A DNA stretch of 64,000 nt, taken from Gammaproteobacteria bacterium (GTDB taxonomy: Bacteria > Pseudomonadota > Gammaproteobacteria > UBA4575). The notes below the pieces were generated by a model. The model searched no databases and was not told the origin of the DNA. It worked only from the letters and a program-made list of their open reading frames with translations. The position numbers were made by a program, and so were the translations under genes. This document shows, in pieces, positions 27,643 through 44,620 of the stretch. Numbering within the stretch: position 1 is the first letter of the stretch; the number at the start of each line of letters is the position of its first letter. The stretch spans positions 94,360 to 158,359 of the forward strand of contig CBDHFH010000003.1 of the NCBI GenBank assembly GCA_965262455.1. Direction: 5' to 3'.

Positions 27643-28839
27643 CTAGATTGGCACACCTAGCGCATGGCGCATAAATAGTAGTTTTAACGGCAGCACTTTA
27701 TCTGTCATGTTGACACCCACAGAACGCGCATGTTTAACCAAGCCACGTTGCTCCCTGAATAATGTATCAATTATCTCTAATGACTTCTGCATAATAATAT
27801 TTTCACTTTTACGCGCACGTTCATACTGACGCAACACGCGTCTGCTGCCTAGGGGCCTTTCAGAGGACTGTAGTAAATTGAATAGATGGTGCACATCAGC
27901 AAAGCCAAGATTCAACCCTAGGCCGGCCAAAGGGTGGACCACATGGGCTGCATCACCCAATAACACTACTCGGTGATCGATATACTGACTTGCTTGGGCA
28001 CCCTGCAACGGAAATGACTTTCGCACTGAGCACACAGACAGTTGTCCTAATTTATTCTCAAACGCCTGCGTGAGTTCAAGATTAAATTCTTGTTCGGTTA
28101 ATGCCATCAACTGCTGGCATTGTTGTTCGGGGACACTCCATACAACAGAGCACACATGATCATCCAATGGTAACAGCGCTAATGGTCCGACAGGCGTAAA
28201 ACATTGCCACGCTGTTTGCTGATGATCTTGCTCGGTATTGACGGTACATACCAAGCCTAATTGTTGATAGCGGGTTGTTACGCGGCTGGCACCTATACAT
28301 TCACGCACCATGGATTGTTGCCCATCTGCGCCCAAGACTAATTCAGCGCTTAAACGCTCACCTTCAGCTAATTCCATCAACATCGCTGTATCGGATATCG
28401 CTGATAGATGCTGCAAACCCTGCCGATCAAAGCGCTTAATGTTGTTACATTGATCGACTTTGTTATTCAACGCCGTCAACAGCACCTGATTTTCAACAAT
28501 CACGCCCAGCATAGGGTGCGTTGTATCCTGGCAATTGAAATTAATCAACGTCTCGGCTTGCTGTTCCCATACATGCATAGATTGATAAGGACAGACACGC
28601 ATGGCACGTATATCCCGCCAAACACCAATATGTGTTAATAATTCTATGCTCGCTAAATTAAGTGCACTTACACGCAAGCCATAATCATCCCCAGCTTGCC
28701 ACGGGGTGAAAGGCGTATGGTCGATCAGGGCCACACGTGTATATTGTTGCGCCAATAGCGTGGCTGCAGCCAATCCCACTGCACCAGCACCAACAATAGC
28801 CACATCGAATGGAGCAACGCTATTGACCAAACTGATCAC
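27643..28839 (-). CDS. ubiI: FAD-dependent ubiquinone-biosynthesis monooxygenase (UbiI/VisC-like)
   Basis: 398 aa; FAD fingerprint DVAIVGAGAVGLAAA, GDAAH..HPLAGLGLNLG. Follows ubiH as in E. coli. Confidence 0.8.
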   Translation of the reverse strand: MISLVNSVAPFDVAIVGAGAVGLAAATLLAQQYTRVALIDHTPFTPWQAGDDYGLRVSALNLASIELLTHIGVWRDIRAMRVCPYQSMHVWEQQAETLINFNCQDTTHPMLGVIVENQVLLTALNNKVDQCNNIKRFDRQGLQHLSAISDTAMLMELAEGERLSAELVLGADGQQSMVRECIGASRVTTRYQQLGLVCTVNTEQDHQQTAWQCFTPVGPLALLPLDDHVCSVVWSVPEQQCQQLMALTEQEFNLELTQAFENKLGQLSVCSVRKSFPLQGAQASQYIDHRVVLLGDAAHVVHPLAGLGLNLGFADVHHLFNLLQSSERPLGSRRVLRQYERARKSENIIMQKSLEIIDTLFREQRGLVKHARSVGVNMTDKVLPLKLLFMRHALGVPI

Positions 28840-30043
28840 CTTCCGGGCTTAGTAAATGGCGGGTTCCCATATTACGTCTCAACACGCTGCGTTGTGCCGC
28901 AGGAAGACTGCCTATCATGCGCACGCCTAGACCTCGCAGCAATTTTAACGGCCAAACCTGCGGGGCGAATAAACGTGTTAAGCCATCCGTTAAGCGCATA
29001 ACATGTTGCCGATCTGGCGTACGCTGTTGTTGATATTCAGCTAACATGTGTGGGTATTGTGCGGGATCAAACTTAAACTTTGTGAGCATATGTACCAATG
29101 TATGCACATCACGTAAGCCGAGGTTAAATCCTTGGGCCGCCACGGGATGCACAGTCTGGGCGGCATTACCTATCAGCACAGCTTGCTGACGTGTTAACTC
29201 ATCGCTGCTGGTCATTGCCAAAGGATAAGACGCTCGACGTCCCACAGCGATAAACTTACCTAAGCGATAGCCAAAGGCCTTCTGTAAGGCCTGTAAAAAT
29301 CGCGCATCATTCATTTGCATATAGTCGTCAACATGATTTTCATGCTGCGTCCAAATCAACGCGCAATGATTATCGTGGATCGGCAATACCGCTAATGGTC
29401 CATGCTGAGTGAAACGTTCATATGCCACATTATTGTGCGGCTTTTGCGTTTGCACATTAGTGATGATTGCGTTTTGATGATATTTCTTATGTGTCGCATA
29501 GATATTCAATAATTCACGTACTTTTGAATGTGTTCCATCTGCACCCACTAACAAACCTGCGGAAATATGTTTTGTTACGCCTTGATGTTGAATTTCTATT
29601 TGGTAGCCATTTGCCTGAGAGTGAATAACGTCGCACGTGGCAGGAGAGAGCACTGTAAGGTTATTTATTTGTGCGACTTCATCACTGAGTACTTTCATCA
29701 AATGATGATTAGGCACCATGTAGCCGATTGGTGCTATGCCATGATGATTCGCATCAATACGAGCACCTCCAAAATTACCTTGTTCAGAAATATCCAGGCG
29801 CTCAATCGCATTTGCCAATGTTGCTATTTTTGGCCAAACGCCGACTTGAGAAAACATTTTTTCAGAGCTACGTGTTAATCCCGTGGTCCTTAAATCGAGG
29901 ATATTATCGTGCAAGGCAGCGGATTCACTTTGCTCAAGCAGCAGCACCTTACACGGTGTGTTTGCCAACCCAACAGCCAGCGACATGCCCACCAGTCCAC
30001 CACCGACAATGACAATATCAAAATTTAATTCGGGGTTATGCAT
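28820..30043 (-). CDS. ubiH: 2-octaprenyl-6-methoxyphenol hydroxylase (FAD monooxygenase)
   Basis: 407 aa; FDIVIVGGGLVG, GNAAQTVHPVAAQGFNLG. Position between pepP and ubiI. Confidence 0.85.
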   Translation of the reverse strand: MHNPELNFDIVIVGGGLVGMSLAVGLANTPCKVLLLEQSESAALHDNILDLRTTGLTRSSEKMFSQVGVWPKIATLANAIERLDISEQGNFGGARIDANHHGIAPIGYMVPNHHLMKVLSDEVAQINNLTVLSPATCDVIHSQANGYQIEIQHQGVTKHISAGLLVGADGTHSKVRELLNIYATHKKYHQNAIITNVQTQKPHNNVAYERFTQHGPLAVLPIHDNHCALIWTQHENHVDDYMQMNDARFLQALQKAFGYRLGKFIAVGRRASYPLAMTSSDELTRQQAVLIGNAAQTVHPVAAQGFNLGLRDVHTLVHMLTKFKFDPAQYPHMLAEYQQQRTPDRQHVMRLTDGLTRLFAPQVWPLKLLRGLGVRMIGSLPAAQRSVLRRNMGTRHLLSPEGDQFGQ

Positions 30044-39465: not shown

Positions 39466-39771
39466 TTAAATCTGTAATCTCTTGACCACGACCCCATTTT
39501 CTAGATGGTCATGGACAATCTGCTTGAGGTCCTCTACTGATTCATAGTGATACCAGACATTATCCGGATAAACCACGGCCACCGGCCCTTCGTCACATCG
39601 GTCAAGGCAGCCGGCAGTGTTGATGCGCAATTTACCCTGGCCGGTTAAGCCCAGTTCTTTGGCATGTGCTTTTACTTCCTTACGCTTTTCAAGTGCATCA
39701 TGTTGTTGGCAGCACACGCCATCTTCACGTTGGTTTGTACATATAAACAAATGGCGTTTGTAATAACTCAT
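39466..39771 (-). CDS. Thioredoxin-like [2Fe-2S] ferredoxin family protein
   Basis: 101 aa; Cys pattern HLFICTNQR...C..Q...AGCLDRCDEGPVAVVYPDNVWY, typical of the thioredoxin-like ferredoxin fold. Confidence 0.65.
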   Translation of the reverse strand: MSYYKRHLFICTNQREDGVCCQQHDALEKRKEVKAHAKELGLTGQGKLRINTAGCLDRCDEGPVAVVYPDNVWYHYESVEDLKQIVHDHLENGVVVKRLQI

Positions 39772-39873
39772 TTCATATCCAATGTATTTAATCGGTTAGA
39801 GAGACTGTTTGCAACTATCCCGCTATTATAATTATTTATTGCACACTGCCTACATTTAGAAATTTAGCATTAC

Positions 39874-41055
39874 ATGTCGACACAGCTTGATTCAATAAAA
39901 TTGAATATCACTAACGCATCGGACCAATGCGTCATGTGTGGCATGTGTTTACCTCACTGCCCAACATATCAGGTTAGCCGACATGAAGCAGAATCACCGC
40001 GTGGACGTATATCATTAATTAAAGCATTTGCCGAGGGCAGCCTGGATGCAAGTGATCACCTTGAAGCGCATATGCAAAGTTGTACAGGTTGCTTGACGTG
40101 CCAACATGTCTGTCCAGCCAATGTCGATTTCCAAACAATTATCGATACCGGTAAACAACTTTATCGCCACAAACAAAGTCGTTCTGCACGCATCCTGCAA
40201 AACTTAACCATCAATGTAATGACTCAACAATGGGGTCATACAGTCATTAAATTAGCCAGTCGATTTGTAAAATATATACCTAATACACATCGACATATGC
40301 AGCTGCTCAGGCATGTAACCAATGAACCACAACTTAGAGCTAATCAGACTGAAACAAGTATTACTGTTTTCCCAGGATGTACAGGCAACTTATTTGACCA
40401 ACAATCATTGAATAGCCTAATCACCATATTGAATGCCATTGGTGTCAGCGCTCAGTTTCCCGACAAACTATATTGTTGTGGCGCACTTTCTCAACATAGT
40501 GGTCGACTTCAACAAGCCGAAAAAGACATACACAACATAAAACATTATTTTAAAAAAAATACATCGACTACTTTGCTTTCATTTGCAAATGGCTGCGGCC
40601 GCCAGCTCGATGAGCAATTCACTGATAGTAATGTCACGCATTATGATGCACTTGAGTGGTTTAACACACAACAGGCAGCAAAAGAGCTTAAATTTTCAAG
40701 TACCAACAAGTGTGTGCTTATACACACTCCCTGTAGTGTTGCACCAACAAAGCAAGCAATTACTTATCAATTATTAAAAAACATTCCCGGCATTAAGCTG
40801 ATCGAATTTGATGATAACCTTGCATGTTGTGGTGCAGGCGGTATGCAGTTGACCTCACCAGAAGAAAGTAATCAGCGTTTGTTAGATAGCAAAGTCAACA
40901 CAATAAACAATCTTAAACCTGATGTTATTGTTTCATCCAATATTGGATGCTCACTGAATTTTAAACTGGGCTTGGATAAGACAGCTTTAGACATTGAGGT
41001 CATTCATCCGTTAACATTACTGGCAAGGCAATTGATAACTCACACTAATGAATAA
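39874..41055 (+). CDS. GlcF-like (Fe-S)-binding oxidoreductase subunit: two 4Fe-4S ferredoxin motifs plus two CCG (Cys-rich) domains
   Basis: 393 aa; CxxCxxCxxxCP twice (CVMCGMCLPHCP, CTGCLTCQHVCP) then CCG motifs (YCCGALSQHSG, ACCGAGGMQ). Stop overlaps the coq7 start by 8 nt. Confidence 0.75.
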   Translation: MSTQLDSIKLNITNASDQCVMCGMCLPHCPTYQVSRHEAESPRGRISLIKAFAEGSLDASDHLEAHMQSCTGCLTCQHVCPANVDFQTIIDTGKQLYRHKQSRSARILQNLTINVMTQQWGHTVIKLASRFVKYIPNTHRHMQLLRHVTNEPQLRANQTETSITVFPGCTGNLFDQQSLNSLITILNAIGVSAQFPDKLYCCGALSQHSGRLQQAEKDIHNIKHYFKKNTSTTLLSFANGCGRQLDEQFTDSNVTHYDALEWFNTQQAAKELKFSSTNKCVLIHTPCSVAPTKQAITYQLLKNIPGIKLIEFDDNLACCGAGGMQLTSPEESNQRLLDSKVNTINNLKPDVIVSSNIGCSLNFKLGLDKTALDIEVIHPLTLLARQLITHTNE

Positions 41056-41686
41056 ACGAAACTTTTGTGACACTCTTATAGAAGAATTTGATCGTGGCTT
41101 AAGGACATTGACCAAAGCCTCACGTAGCGCATCACGCGACAATCCCGCGGATGACATTCCTGAAGCTGACCTAAATGACCAAGAAGCAACCCTTAGCGGC
41201 AGACTCATGCGTGTCAATCATGCAGGCGAAATTGCTGCACAAGGGCTCTATCATGGTCAGGCGCTTACTGCACGCAATCAAGCTACGCTTGAGCAGATGC
41301 GTGTGTCTGCCAAGGAAGAAGAAGATCATCTTGCCTGGTGTGAACAACGCCTCAATGAATTACAAACTCCAACCAGCATGATTACCCCGTTGTGGTATGC
41401 TGGGTCTTATGCCATCGGTGCTACCGCAGGATTGTTTGGTGATAAATGGAGTTTAGGTTTTGTTGCGGAAACAGAAAACCAAGTAGAACAACATTTACAA
41501 AGTCACCTGGAAAAACTTCCCGCTCAAGATGAAAAAAGTAAATCTATTATCGACTTAATGCAGCAAGATGAACGCAGGCATGGTGATGCGGCAAGAAATT
41601 TAGGTGGTGTTGATCTTCCCAAACCTGTGCAAAAAGCGATGCAAGCTGTATCTAAAGTCATGACAACAGGTGCTTTCTGGATTTAA
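41048..41686 (+). CDS. coq7: Demethoxyubiquinone hydroxylase, di-iron carboxylate type (Coq7)
   Basis: 212 aa; di-iron ligand motifs (RVNHAGEIAAQGLYHGQ, EEEDHLAWCEQRL, QDERRHGD). Confidence 0.85.
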   Translation: MNKRNFCDTLIEEFDRGLRTLTKASRSASRDNPADDIPEADLNDQEATLSGRLMRVNHAGEIAAQGLYHGQALTARNQATLEQMRVSAKEEEDHLAWCEQRLNELQTPTSMITPLWYAGSYAIGATAGLFGDKWSLGFVAETENQVEQHLQSHLEKLPAQDEKSKSIIDLMQQDERRHGDAARNLGGVDLPKPVQKAMQAVSKVMTTGAFWI

Positions 41687-41701: not shown

Positions 41702-42097
41702 ATGAACCCATATAGAATATTTACAGGTTTGATAACTACATTTGTATTGCTATTTACTAACAGTGCATTTGCTGATGAAGCTAGCGCAACTAAAGAGCTA
41801 GAACAAATTATTGTGTTTGATCAAACCTGCATAATAATGCACACAGAAGGCAGAAAGTATTTAGAAAACAAAGAAAAAATTGCTCAGTCTTATGGTGCAA
41901 GCGCACTCATCGAAAAACATCTGGAAATGCGCTTGAAAGAGTATTCAGAATTAACCGGCAACAATATTGACGCGACCCGCGACGCAACATTTGACAAAGG
42001 CGTTGTATTATTCAAAGAACTTTCCAAATACCAACCCAGAGATCTGGTAATGCAATGCAAAGGATTAGTTGAAGAAATAGTAAAGACTAATATCTAG
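41702..42097 (+). CDS. Hypothetical secreted protein
   Basis: 131 aa with signal peptide (LLFTNSAFA); no recognisable domain. Confidence 0.45.
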   Translation: MNPYRIFTGLITTFVLLFTNSAFADEASATKELEQIIVFDQTCIIMHTEGRKYLENKEKIAQSYGASALIEKHLEMRLKEYSELTGNNIDATRDATFDKGVVLFKELSKYQPRDLVMQCKGLVEEIVKTNI

Positions 42098-42488: not shown

Positions 42489-42739
42489 AACAAGAACCTC
42501 CTTAGAGTTTCTATTCTTCACCTATCAGCGCAAATGCAATCAGACACTTTTATTTAGTTTTCTAAAACAGTTTCACCCTTGAAACTGACCTACATCAAAA
42601 AGCTAGATTAATCAAATATTAGAATGTCATTATACACTTAAGTTGTTGATTCTTTGTCGTTATTAAGAATTTGCAACACATTTAAGTCAATCAATTGCGT
42701 GCAACACAAATTTTTTGCACCTTATGCAAGGAGAACGAC

Positions 42740-43171
42740 ATGAAAAAAATACTACCTATTTTGTTAGTAATATCGATCACACTAATGGGAGCTGTGAATG
42801 CTTCAGACCACAGTGACGATCAAAATATTTTAATTCACCTCAGTAACTATACCAACGACCTTCATTCAGTAAACATGGCCTTAAAGCTAGGGCATATGCT
42901 CTCTGAACAAGGATCATCAGTTACTTTATTTGTTGATTTAGAGGGCGTTAGATTGGTCGATAAACATCAGCCGCAAAACTTAACATGGGGCGCTGGGAAA
43001 TCGATTGAAACTTTATACAATCAATTTATTAGCGCAGGAGGCAACGTTTTAGTATGCCCACATTGTGCAGAAGCAGCAGGCGTTACAGAAGTAAGAAAAG
43101 GTGCTGTCATTGCAGATAAAGATAGCTTAACGAAAGCGATAATGTCTGCTGACAAAATCTTAGACTACTAA
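42740..43171 (+). CDS. DsrE/DsrF-like family periplasmic protein
   Basis: Start MKKILPILLVISITLMGAVNA (signal) with RBS aggaga; DsrE-like fold pattern (ILIHLSNYTN...LFVDLEGVRLV...VCPHCAEAAGV). Confidence 0.55.
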   Translation: MKKILPILLVISITLMGAVNASDHSDDQNILIHLSNYTNDLHSVNMALKLGHMLSEQGSSVTLFVDLEGVRLVDKHQPQNLTWGAGKSIETLYNQFISAGGNVLVCPHCAEAAGVTEVRKGAVIADKDSLTKAIMSADKILDY

Positions 43172-43402
43172 GTAATACATCAAATTACATGGAAGATTGT
43201 TGCATCAAGGACGATGCAAATTATAAACATTCAATGTCAGCTTTCGGCACAAAAGCGGACATAAACTTAACTGCGAAGAATAGTAAAAAAATAACGGCCT
43301 CAATAAAGAATTAGTTATTGTTCATATAAAATTGAATGTTTACTTAAACTGTTTTGCGACATCAACTCTACACTTTTGAGCAACCGATGTATCTGACCTA
43401 GG

Positions 43403-44620
43403 TTATCCCGCAAATCCAAGCAATGCTGAGCCAAACAACCACACAGCTGCAGGCAATGGAATGGGTGCAATCGTTGCAGCCCAAGCTTCAATATTACCGT
43501 TATGAGTACCATACCCAACAAGGGTTGACCCATCTTCGGAACCAAGATTAAAGATATTATGGCAAAGGCAGTAGTGAGTCCAGTCCATCCCATCGCTGAA
43601 ATATCAATACCGTCTGCAGCCAATTCATCTTCAACGCTCAACATCAGTGCCAAGGCTTCTGACCAAATGAACGCTTCATTGCCATTCGCGGAATTGCTTT
43701 GCCCCACAATCTGTGTTATAGGGCGGGTGCCATCGCCGGACACGCCAAGAGCTTCACTAGAAAAATCACCGCCAGGTAAATCCCCAAGGCCCGTCATCAT
43801 CCCGTTTTCATATTTAAACGCTTCTCTGCCATTCGCGGAACTGCCTCTTCCCACAATCACGGTGCCATCACTGGATACGTCAAAAGCAATACTTATAAGT
43901 GTAATATTACACCGCCAGGTAAATCCCCAAGGCCCGTCATCATCCCGTTTTCATATTTAAATGCTTCAGTGCCATTCGCAGAACGGCCTTGCCCCACAAT
44001 CACGGTGCCATCGCTGGACACGCCATAAGCTAAACTTTGAAAAATACGTAGAACACTTTATTCTTACGCCAGGTAAATCCCCAAGGCCCGTCATCATCCC
44101 GTTTTCATATTTAAACGCTTCTCCGCCATTCGCGGACACAAAAAGCCTTGCCCCACAATCACAGTGCCGTCACTGGACACGCCACGAGCTTCACTAAAAA
44201 AACCACCGCCGGGTAAATCCCCAAGGCCCGTCATCATCCCGTTTTCATATTTAAATGCTTCATTGCCATTCGCGGAATTGCTTCTGCCCAGAATCACGGT
44301 GCCATCGCTGGACACGCCAAGAGCAACACTTGAAGAACCACCGCCAGGTAAATCCAGCAGACGTCGTCCAAGGCCCGTCATCATCCCGTTTTCATATTTA
44401 AACGCTTCTAATAGTTAAAGCCATTCGCGGAACTCCCTCGCCCCACAATCACGTTGCCATCACTGGATACGTCAAAAGCAATACTATTAAGACTACAATG
44501 GATGTATTTGCTGCCAGGTAAATCCCCAAGGCCGGTAAAACTGGTGAATTGCACTGCATGTGCTGGACTGAGGAATAAAAAGTATAACAACGCTGGTGTC
44601 AGTAATTTATAGAATGGCAT
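43403..44620 (-). pseudogene. Disrupted HAF-repeat extracellular protein with N-terminal signal peptide and PEP-CTERM-like C-terminus; multiple frameshifts and in-frame stops
   Basis: Minus strand starts with MPFYKLLTPALLYFLFLSPAHA (signal). It then has ~6 copies of the HAF-type repeat ...SSDGTVIVG.SNSANGNEAFKYENGMMTGLGDLPGG..., and ends ...IEAWAATIAPIPLPAAVWLFGSALLGFAG-stop (PEP-CTERM-like hydrophobic anchor without the basic tail). The reading frame switches at least four times (ORFs 44408..44620, 44094..44384, 43315..43860, 43403..43588 are all pieces). There is an ~9-bp insertion (tttaactat) at 44411-44419 and a 12-bp in-frame insertion (agcagacgtcgt) at 44357-44368. Confidence 0.6.
43772..44525. 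repeat. Imperfect tandem DNA repeats, ~132-169 bp period (6 copies of ccaggtaaatccccaaggcccgtcatcatcccgttttcatatttaaaYgcttc...gccattcgcggaa...ccccacaatcacggtgccatcRctgga), underlying the HAF protein repeats
   Basis: Copies of ccRggtaaatcc at 43772, 43914, 44069, 44211, 44343, 44512. Confidence 0.85.

Follow-up and report, generated by a model that had tools for sequence, protein, structure and literature searches.

A GlcF-like iron-sulfur protein encoded immediately upstream of coq7 in a gammaproteobacterial genome and its relatives

A stretch of 64,000 nucleotides from a gammaproteobacterial contig (CBDHFH010000003.1, lineage UBA4575), here called the window, carries three neighboring genes that are the subject of this report. 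A thioredoxin-like [2Fe-2S] ferredoxin of 101 residues is encoded on the minus strand (39466..39771), a GlcF/HdrD-like iron-sulfur (Fe-S) protein of 393 residues on the plus strand (39874..41055), and a 212-residue di-iron demethoxyubiquinone (C6) hydroxylase, Coq7, directly after it on the same strand (41048..41686). The ferredoxin gene is divergent from the GlcF-like gene across an intergenic region of 102 nt (39772..39873), and the stop of the GlcF-like gene overlaps the start of coq7 by 8 nt, ATGAATAA (41048..41055, plus strand). The ferredoxin, the 393-residue protein with its two [4Fe-4S] and two CCG sites, and the overlap all lie exactly where an initial annotation of this DNA had put them, and strong hidden Markov model (HMM) matches indicate that the three genes are not chance open reading frames (ORFs). 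The middle gene represents a previously undescribed family of GlcF paralogs that shares an operon with coq7 in dozens of species, a link unreported in the literature searched.

The 393-residue protein begins with a ferredoxin domain for two [4Fe-4S] clusters, marked by two CxxCxxCxxxCP motifs (C19/22/25/29 and C70/73/76/80), and continues into two CCG domains of four cysteines each (C169/201/202/241 and C287/318/319/359). Pfam recognizes CCG (PF02754) in two stretches with an E-value of 7e-23 and Fer4_8 with an E-value of 4e-13, and the cluster cysteines are invariant in an alignment of 34 sequences. An AlphaFold (AF2) model built from that alignment, with a pLDDT of 89.6, matches the folds of LutA (9a6l, TMt 0.81), mycobacterial EtfD (9ojn, TMq 0.65) and HdrB, and a profile search of PDB sequences returned the same three relatives. 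By domain content and fold, then, the protein belongs to the CCG-domain, HdrD-like superfamily of Fe-S oxidoreductases. Like EtfD, HdrD/HdrBC, GlpC and LutA, it joins a ferredoxin-type dicluster domain to two CCG domains; unlike them, it has no transmembrane or haem b domain. Its CCG motifs also differ from those of the EtfD/Hdr group in ending in a single cysteine instead of CxxC, so that the motifs do not tell a noncubane 4Fe-4S from a linear 3Fe-4S cluster. The initial annotation had described the protein as membrane-associated, a description without support here, as it contains no hydrophobic segment of transmembrane length (maximum 19-residue Kyte-Doolittle mean 1.05); the ferredoxin and Coq7 have no such segment either.

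The start of this gene deserves a comment. At 39874-39936, a public protein record (P0001, 373 residues, 100% identical, 95% coverage) apparently begins at M21, a start that would leave the leading CxxCxxCxxxCP motif without Cys19, its first ligand. The longer ORF from 39874 is backed by homologs of 385-390 residues.

Immediately downstream, the coq7 product scores 287 bits against NCBIfam NF033656 (cut-off 180) and matches PF03232 with an E-value of 1.6e-42. A pattern search located the ExxH motifs E91xxH94 and E175xxH178, and the single-glutamate ligands E61 and E143 were read by eye from the printed sequence; on these criteria the gene encodes a bona fide Coq7. The same window holds two further hydroxylase genes at 27643-30043, annotated at first as ubiH and ubiI. 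The name ubiH holds for the gene at 28820-30043, which scores above the UbiH equivalog cut-offs, and its neighbor at 27643-28839 can be assigned only to the UbiH/UbiF/VisC subfamily. The pair fits the UbiH/UbiI/Coq7 set of many Gammaproteobacteria (PMC10597321).

The ferredoxin is recognizable mainly through its structural relatives. PDB entry 1F37, Fd4 of Aquifex aeolicus, matches residues 6-100 (E-value 2e-12), and C11, C55 and C59 align with cluster-ligand cysteines of 1F37. C20 and C21 lie in the loop expected to hold the fourth ligand, Cys22 in Fd4; the printed 1F37 alignment leaves both cysteines off that ligand. Family models are less decisive: the match to Pfam PF01257 reaches 20.8 bits, under the gathering score of 24.8, and the NCBIfam equivalog scores fall far below their cut-offs for both the Clostridium type (67.8 versus 150) and the Azotobacter type (39.2 versus 195). 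The 1F37 match, the three aligned ligand cysteines and the position of C20/C21 near the expected fourth thus make up its likeness to the Aquifex Fd4 and Clostridium pasteurianum-type ferredoxins, from which it differs in belonging to a separate gamma/betaproteobacterial family. It is the best conserved of the three genes (88% identity in locus L001), and among related loci it is adjacent and divergent to the GlcF-like gene in 66 of the 77 that could be assessed.

Members of this ferredoxin family also occur in other company. In L085 (6001-8905) and L089 (6001-6961), a ferredoxin gene heads a same-strand series that continues with a Hydrolase_4 alpha/beta hydrolase and a NodI/NodJ-type ATP-binding cassette (ABC) transporter, a conserved cluster found on Burkholderiales-labelled and other contigs and in several Gammaproteobacteria loci; UbiB is encoded about 5 kb upstream of the cluster in L085. 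In one relative (L092, 3826-4755), a Rieske/KshA-type oxygenase gene stands between the ferredoxin and GlcF-like genes.

The divergent intergenic region is itself partly conserved. When 10 related intergenic regions were aligned, GAGAGACTGT (about 39798-39808), a spacer of about 12 nt and then CGCTATTATAATTATTTA (about 39821-39838) were seen to be kept among close relatives. CGCTATTATAATTATTTA includes TATAAT, which can be read in both strand directions, and a promoter-like site on the minus strand uses it. That said, a promoter and terminator scan of the region gave no more sites than shuffled sequence. The conserved motif is probably a shared promoter or operator.

The closest curated match of the 393-residue protein is GlcF, the Fe-S subunit of the GlcDEF glycolate oxidase. 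Its domain order (two CxxCxxCxxxCP motifs and two four-cysteine CCG domains) is that of GlcF, its length is similar, and its best NCBIfam match is the GlcF model NF008434, at 155 bits against a cut-off of 333. Other members of the coq7-linked group score 190-224 bits, and so does a true, glcE-adjacent GlcF from Fimbriimonadaceae, at 214. Use of the cut-off as a membership test was accordingly dropped, since a true but distant GlcF fails it too, and because it does not discriminate, paralogy is argued from the tree and from gene context.

For this comparison canonical GlcF relatives were drawn from plasmid records of Pseudomonas aeruginosa, Cupriavidus, Methylorubrum, Deinococcus, Rhodococcus and Parageobacillus, together with E. 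coli and a Fimbriimonadaceae metagenome-assembled genome. A neighbor-joining bootstrap tree was computed over 381 columns from seven canonical GlcFs and 44 members of the coq7-linked type, with the Parageobacillus homolog as outgroup. The seven canonical proteins (E. coli, P. aeruginosa, Cupriavidus, Methylorubrum, Deinococcus, Rhodococcus and Fimbriimonadaceae) cluster with a bootstrap of 87 to the exclusion of all 44 members; the bootstrap for a single clade of the coq7-linked type is low, at 27. Pairwise identities run the same way. E. coli GlcF (b4467) shares 66% identity with its P. aeruginosa counterpart and 26% with the window protein, and mean identity of the P. aeruginosa protein is 43% to other canonical GlcFs, against 30% to the coq7-linked type.

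Gene context separates the two groups as well. Genes for flavin adenine dinucleotide (FAD)-linked oxidases adjoin every canonical GlcF relative sampled, E. coli and Parageobacillus included. Searches with E. coli GlcD and GlcE returned no homolog in the 64-kb window, and neither glcD nor glcE lies beside the gene in any of the 79 loci of the subfamily or in 80 loci centered on Coq7 (both samples are described below). Near the loci these queries matched nothing but FAD-oxidase/CCG gene pairs that stand apart, at a distance of 5-7 kb, in L066 and L068. The neighboring glycolate oxidase flavoprotein genes that would have marked the family as ordinary GlcF are thus missing beside it throughout, and with its distinct grouping the window gene belongs to a paralog lineage and is not the gammaproteobacterial GlcF ortholog.

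How general the arrangement is was examined by scanning one genome per GTDB species with the GlcF-like alignment. This gave 80 loci, nearly all from uncultured Gammaproteobacteria, with labels that include Thiotrichales, Chromatiaceae, Ectothiorhodospiraceae, Tenderia, Thiohalomonas, Sedimenticolaceae, Lysobacteraceae, Tahibacter and Methylococcales; omission of the true GlcF, L080, left 79, of which 71 could be assessed for coq7 and eight could not. Coq7 is encoded downstream of the GlcF-like gene in 65 of the 71, within 500 nt on the same strand in 59 loci and beyond inserted genes in six. It is absent from five loci with at least 1.5 kb visible, and in the remaining one (L079) the GlcF-like gene is truncated. 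Spacing was measured over 65 loci, made up of species loci, the window and three look-up loci: the median distance from the GlcF-like stop to the coq7 start is 25 nt, with 30 gaps of 0-30 nt and six overlaps, the window being joined by L011, L027, L038, L067 and L074 with overlaps of 4 to 32 nt. Co-localization of the two genes is therefore real and operon-like in many Gammaproteobacteria.

The pair does not travel alone. A conserved block order was found, in which rpsI-rplM is followed by the ferredoxin gene fdx (with ABC transporter and alpha/beta hydrolase genes in some versions), then by GlcF-like-coq7, and then by speD-(glyoxalase)-osmC-crp-trpCDGE. Unrelated neighbors are nearly as stable as the pair because the whole region is an old syntenic block. 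In Pseudomonas aeruginosa the order is presumably trpGDC-vfr-osmC-speD-coq7, with no Fe-S gene. ORF clustering had at one point placed the Lysobacteraceae pair in a different context; this was ruled out, as tblastn finds rplM-rpsI and speD there too.

Each of the two genes is also found without the other. In four Methylococcales species whose flanks extend far enough, the GlcF-like gene is intact, retains all its cluster cysteines and occupies the same site, with speD or osmC after it, and both coq7 and the ferredoxin gene have been lost; two more Methylococcales loci lack the ferredoxin and are too short downstream for coq7 to be assessed. These copies nest in the tree inside the clade, beside a Methylococcaceae genome carrying all three genes. 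Methylococcales are known to lack Coq7 and to use UbiF (PMC10597321). In L041 the ferredoxin and GlcF-like genes are present and no coq7 occurs in the 7 kb downstream.

The reverse case was approached with a Coq7-centered scan of metagenome contigs, which yielded 80 loci, 65 of them assessable for the upstream gene. The GlcF-like gene lies upstream of coq7 in 22 of the 65, is inverted relative to coq7 in one and survives as a remnant in another. Eight loci have fdx directly next to coq7, seven have rplM directly next to it, seven have rplM followed by about 1 kb of other sequence and then coq7, and 19 show other contexts. Coq7 is thus encoded without the GlcF-like gene in 41 of these 65 loci, to which L087 and L088 can be added, where a clean fdx/coq7 form sits within the same syntenic block. 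Lysobacteraceae and Thiohalomonadaceae in turn have GlcF-like-coq7 without an adjacent ferredoxin. Independent loss of the GlcF-like gene and of coq7 is therefore evident, and every combination of presence and absence occurs. The co-occurrence that the initial annotation had put forward as a check holds as adjacency (59 direct and six with insertion, of 71) and fails as strict co-occurrence, given the Methylococcales, L041 and the 41 of 65 coq7 loci without the gene.

Several individual loci show how such changes may look in sequence. In L079 (4822-5781) the GlcF-like gene is cut to 98 residues immediately before coq7, and in L150 (5768-6007) a 48-bit GlcF-like remnant lies between rplM and coq7. 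An inversion takes in coq7 and speD in L148 (920-3318) and makes coq7 convergent with the GlcF-like gene.

Whatever the neighboring genes do, Coq7 turnover needs two electrons, and the only characterized route is that of animal COQ7, in which reduced nicotinamide adenine dinucleotide (NADH) reduces the quinone substrate and the substrate reduces the irons, without a protein donor and with a kcat of 1.2 per min (PMC7615680). The eukaryotic COQ7/COQ9/NADH system resembles the present one in that the downstream gene here encodes the same enzyme family, catalyzing the same reaction; it differs in that bacteria have no COQ9, and the GlcF-like protein and ferredoxin have no counterpart there. When 20 bacterial Coq7s were expressed in an E. 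coli ubiF mutant, 15 restored ubiquinone-8 alone (PMC10597321). The papers searched assign no electron source to bacterial Coq7, gene context is not a subject of the two large phylogenomic studies of ubiquinone hydroxylases, and full-text searches returned no paper linking Coq7 with a GlcF-like or CCG protein or with a ferredoxin.

Signals of interaction within the sequences were sought in several ways. The mirror-tree partial correlation between the GlcF-like protein and Coq7 is 0.71, not above the 0.80 of the control pair speD-Coq7, and is uninformative. A scan of Coq7 residues found no position that separates linked from unlinked Coq7s, and the unlinked ones are scattered among the linked, 15 of 36 having a linked copy as nearest neighbor. 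Apparent GlcF-like::Coq7 fusion ORFs in L015, L016 and L079 were rejected, because translation reveals an in-frame stop between the genes.

The reading favored here, at a probability of about 45%, is that the GlcF-like protein is a peripheral, quinone-pool-linked Fe-S electron-transfer protein with a function of its own, co-transcribed with coq7. It would represent an uncharacterized paralog lineage of the GlcF/GlpC/HdrD/EtfD type, with two cubane [4Fe-4S] and two CCG cluster sites and no membrane anchor, and its most likely role would be to pass electrons between the quinone pool of the membrane and a donor that is soluble or peripheral. That a quinone is involved, which way the electrons move and what donates them are all suggested by analogy, because every characterized relative (GlcF, GlpC, HdrD, EtfD, LutA/LutB) links a flavoprotein or some other electron donor with a membrane quinone or a disulfide; in mycobacterial EtfD, for instance, the CCG-domain cluster chain connects electron-transfer flavoprotein (ETF) with menaquinone (PMC13083937). 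In most lineages the neighboring thioredoxin-like ferredoxin may be the donor; a flavoprotein encoded elsewhere is the other candidate. Co-transcription with coq7, together with apparent translational coupling in the window genome, may have historical or regulatory reasons, the arrangement being a probable legacy of a gene block already present in an ancestral gammaproteobacterium. The protein would then neither be required by Coq7 nor depend on it: a function of its own is argued because Methylococcales and L041 retain the gene without coq7, and independence of Coq7 because of the 22/65 linkage and the complementation of E. coli by Coq7 alone.

Several observations weigh against this reading. 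In 65 of 71 assessable genomes the two genes remain a tight same-strand pair even though the GlcF-like protein has diverged to 25-30% identity, start and stop codons overlap in distant lineages, and tight, conserved spacing of this kind is a classic signature of functional coupling. No electron-input partner of the protein was identified at the loci, where the ferredoxin proves separable from the GlcF-like gene and where the absence of glcD and glcE covers about 10 kb around each locus. Any quinone site or membrane-binding element in it would be putative.

The main rival reading draws on this conserved spacing and holds that the ferredoxin and GlcF-like protein form a chain that supplies Coq7 with electrons in an accessory, dispensable way, passing them either to demethoxyubiquinone (DMQ), whose reduced form DMQH2 reduces the di-iron center, or to the di-iron center directly, and so raising the efficiency of C6 hydroxylation. 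This is a serious contender, if on balance a doubtful one. It accounts well for an operon in which the two genes run in the same direction, 25 nt apart at the median and overlapping in six of 65 loci, for the adjacency of coq7 in 59 (plus six with insertion) of 71 genomes across several gammaproteobacterial families, and for the adjacent ferredoxin in 66 of 77; a quinone-reducing Fe-S module would fit the substrate-mediated route of animal COQ7 (PMC7615680), and fdx/coq7 pairs persist where the GlcF-like gene has been lost. Counted on the same side is that no paper in the literature searched links the GlcF-like gene with coq7. Against it stand the Methylococcales, which keep the gene without Coq7 (PMC10597321), the roughly two thirds of related coq7 loci that do without the GlcF-like gene, the ability of Coq7 alone to complement E. 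coli ubiF mutants (PMC10597321), and the interaction signals described above: a mirror-tree value of 0.71 under a control of 0.80, no Coq7 residue specific to linkage, and fusions that resolved into separate ORFs. Much the same facts tell against the initial annotation's proposal of a dedicated Coq7 partner, since only 22 of 65 coq7 genes have the GlcF-like gene upstream, Coq7 works alone in E. coli and animal COQ7 does without a protein donor (PMC7615680); the proposal is weakened further by the positional conservation of functionally unrelated flanking genes. A related possibility shifts the weight from the GlcF-like protein to the ferredoxin, which would be the Coq7-related component, with the GlcF-like gene merely inserted between the two. 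E. coli offers a parallel, in that the small [2Fe-2S] ferredoxin YfaE reduces the di-iron center of NrdB. Divergent fdx/coq7 pairs without the GlcF-like gene, in L087/L088 and eight metagenome loci, speak for this possibility, the ferredoxin and coq7 are both missing in Methylococcales even though they lie on opposite flanks of the GlcF-like gene, and the ferredoxin is the best conserved of the three. It is made improbable by the ferredoxin-hydrolase-ABC clusters of Burkholderiales and other contigs, which have no coq7 within 6 kb, by the GlcF-like-coq7 pairs of Lysobacteraceae and Thiohalomonadaceae that lack an adjacent ferredoxin, and by seven coq7 loci with rplM directly upstream and no ferredoxin.

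The remaining explanation is that the protein is, after all, the true Fe-S component of a dehydrogenase for glycolate or a D-2-hydroxyacid, with GlcD/GlcE-like flavoproteins encoded elsewhere and coq7 a coincidental neighbor. Many of the carriers come from lineages in which CO2 fixation is known and would call for glycolate salvage. The relatives are labelled 'glycolate oxidase iron-sulfur subunit' in their sources, GlcF is the best NCBIfam match (155 bits), the clade's 190-224 bits are like the 214 of true Fimbriimonadaceae GlcF, and glcD-like genes with a CCG partner of their own do lie 5-7 kb off in L066 and L068. Set against these points, glcD/glcE are adjacent in none of about 100 loci, compared with all canonical homologs sampled, the canonical GlcFs, gammaproteobacterial ones included, group apart (bootstrap 87), and the 64-kb window has no GlcD or GlcE homolog, so that this explanation, too, has little to recommend it.

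What the arrangement means can be stated at two levels. The paralog family is at present annotated automatically as 'glycolate oxidase iron-sulfur subunit' or '(Fe-S)-binding protein', yet it stands outside GlcDEF; a likely mis-annotation is thereby corrected, as the former label would falsely credit these genomes with glycolate oxidation. The GlcF-like protein also becomes a concrete candidate for the electron source of bacterial Coq7. In the fullest version of that idea the ferredoxin, the GlcF-like CCG protein and Coq7 would constitute a three-part electron delivery system for the last ubiquinone hydroxylation in a large group of Gammaproteobacteria, which is unlikely as things stand. Were it true, bacterial Coq7 would have its first assigned protein reductant, and CCG-domain proteins a new role in biosynthesis. 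The natural losses imply that any role in ubiquinone synthesis would be accessory and not essential, and the comparative evidence as a whole argues against an essential or exclusive role for the GlcF-like protein in Coq7 function.

A few features downstream of coq7 may be recorded. A 131-residue ORF with a signal-peptide-like N-terminus (41702-42097, plus strand) begins 15 nt past coq7. It matches no family, related loci do not conserve it, and it may share a transcript with coq7 here. Further on, a small protein at 42695-43171 (plus strand) combines a signal-peptide-like N-terminus with a DsrE/DsrF-like domain (PF02635, E-value 3.6e-07); it may be related to sulfur transfer and is unrelated to the GlcF-like/coq7 finding. 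Finally, the minus strand at 43315-44620 contains a 143-nt tandem repeat in 4.9 copies (43767-44485), encoding repeats of about 48 residues (…ANGNEAFKYENGMMTGLGDLPGG…). No Pfam match was found in this region, where the frame is split into at least four ORFs, one fragment carrying a PEP-CTERM-like tail, IPLPAAVWLFGSALLGFAG, and it is a repeat-protein gene in decay or else the result of an assembly problem.

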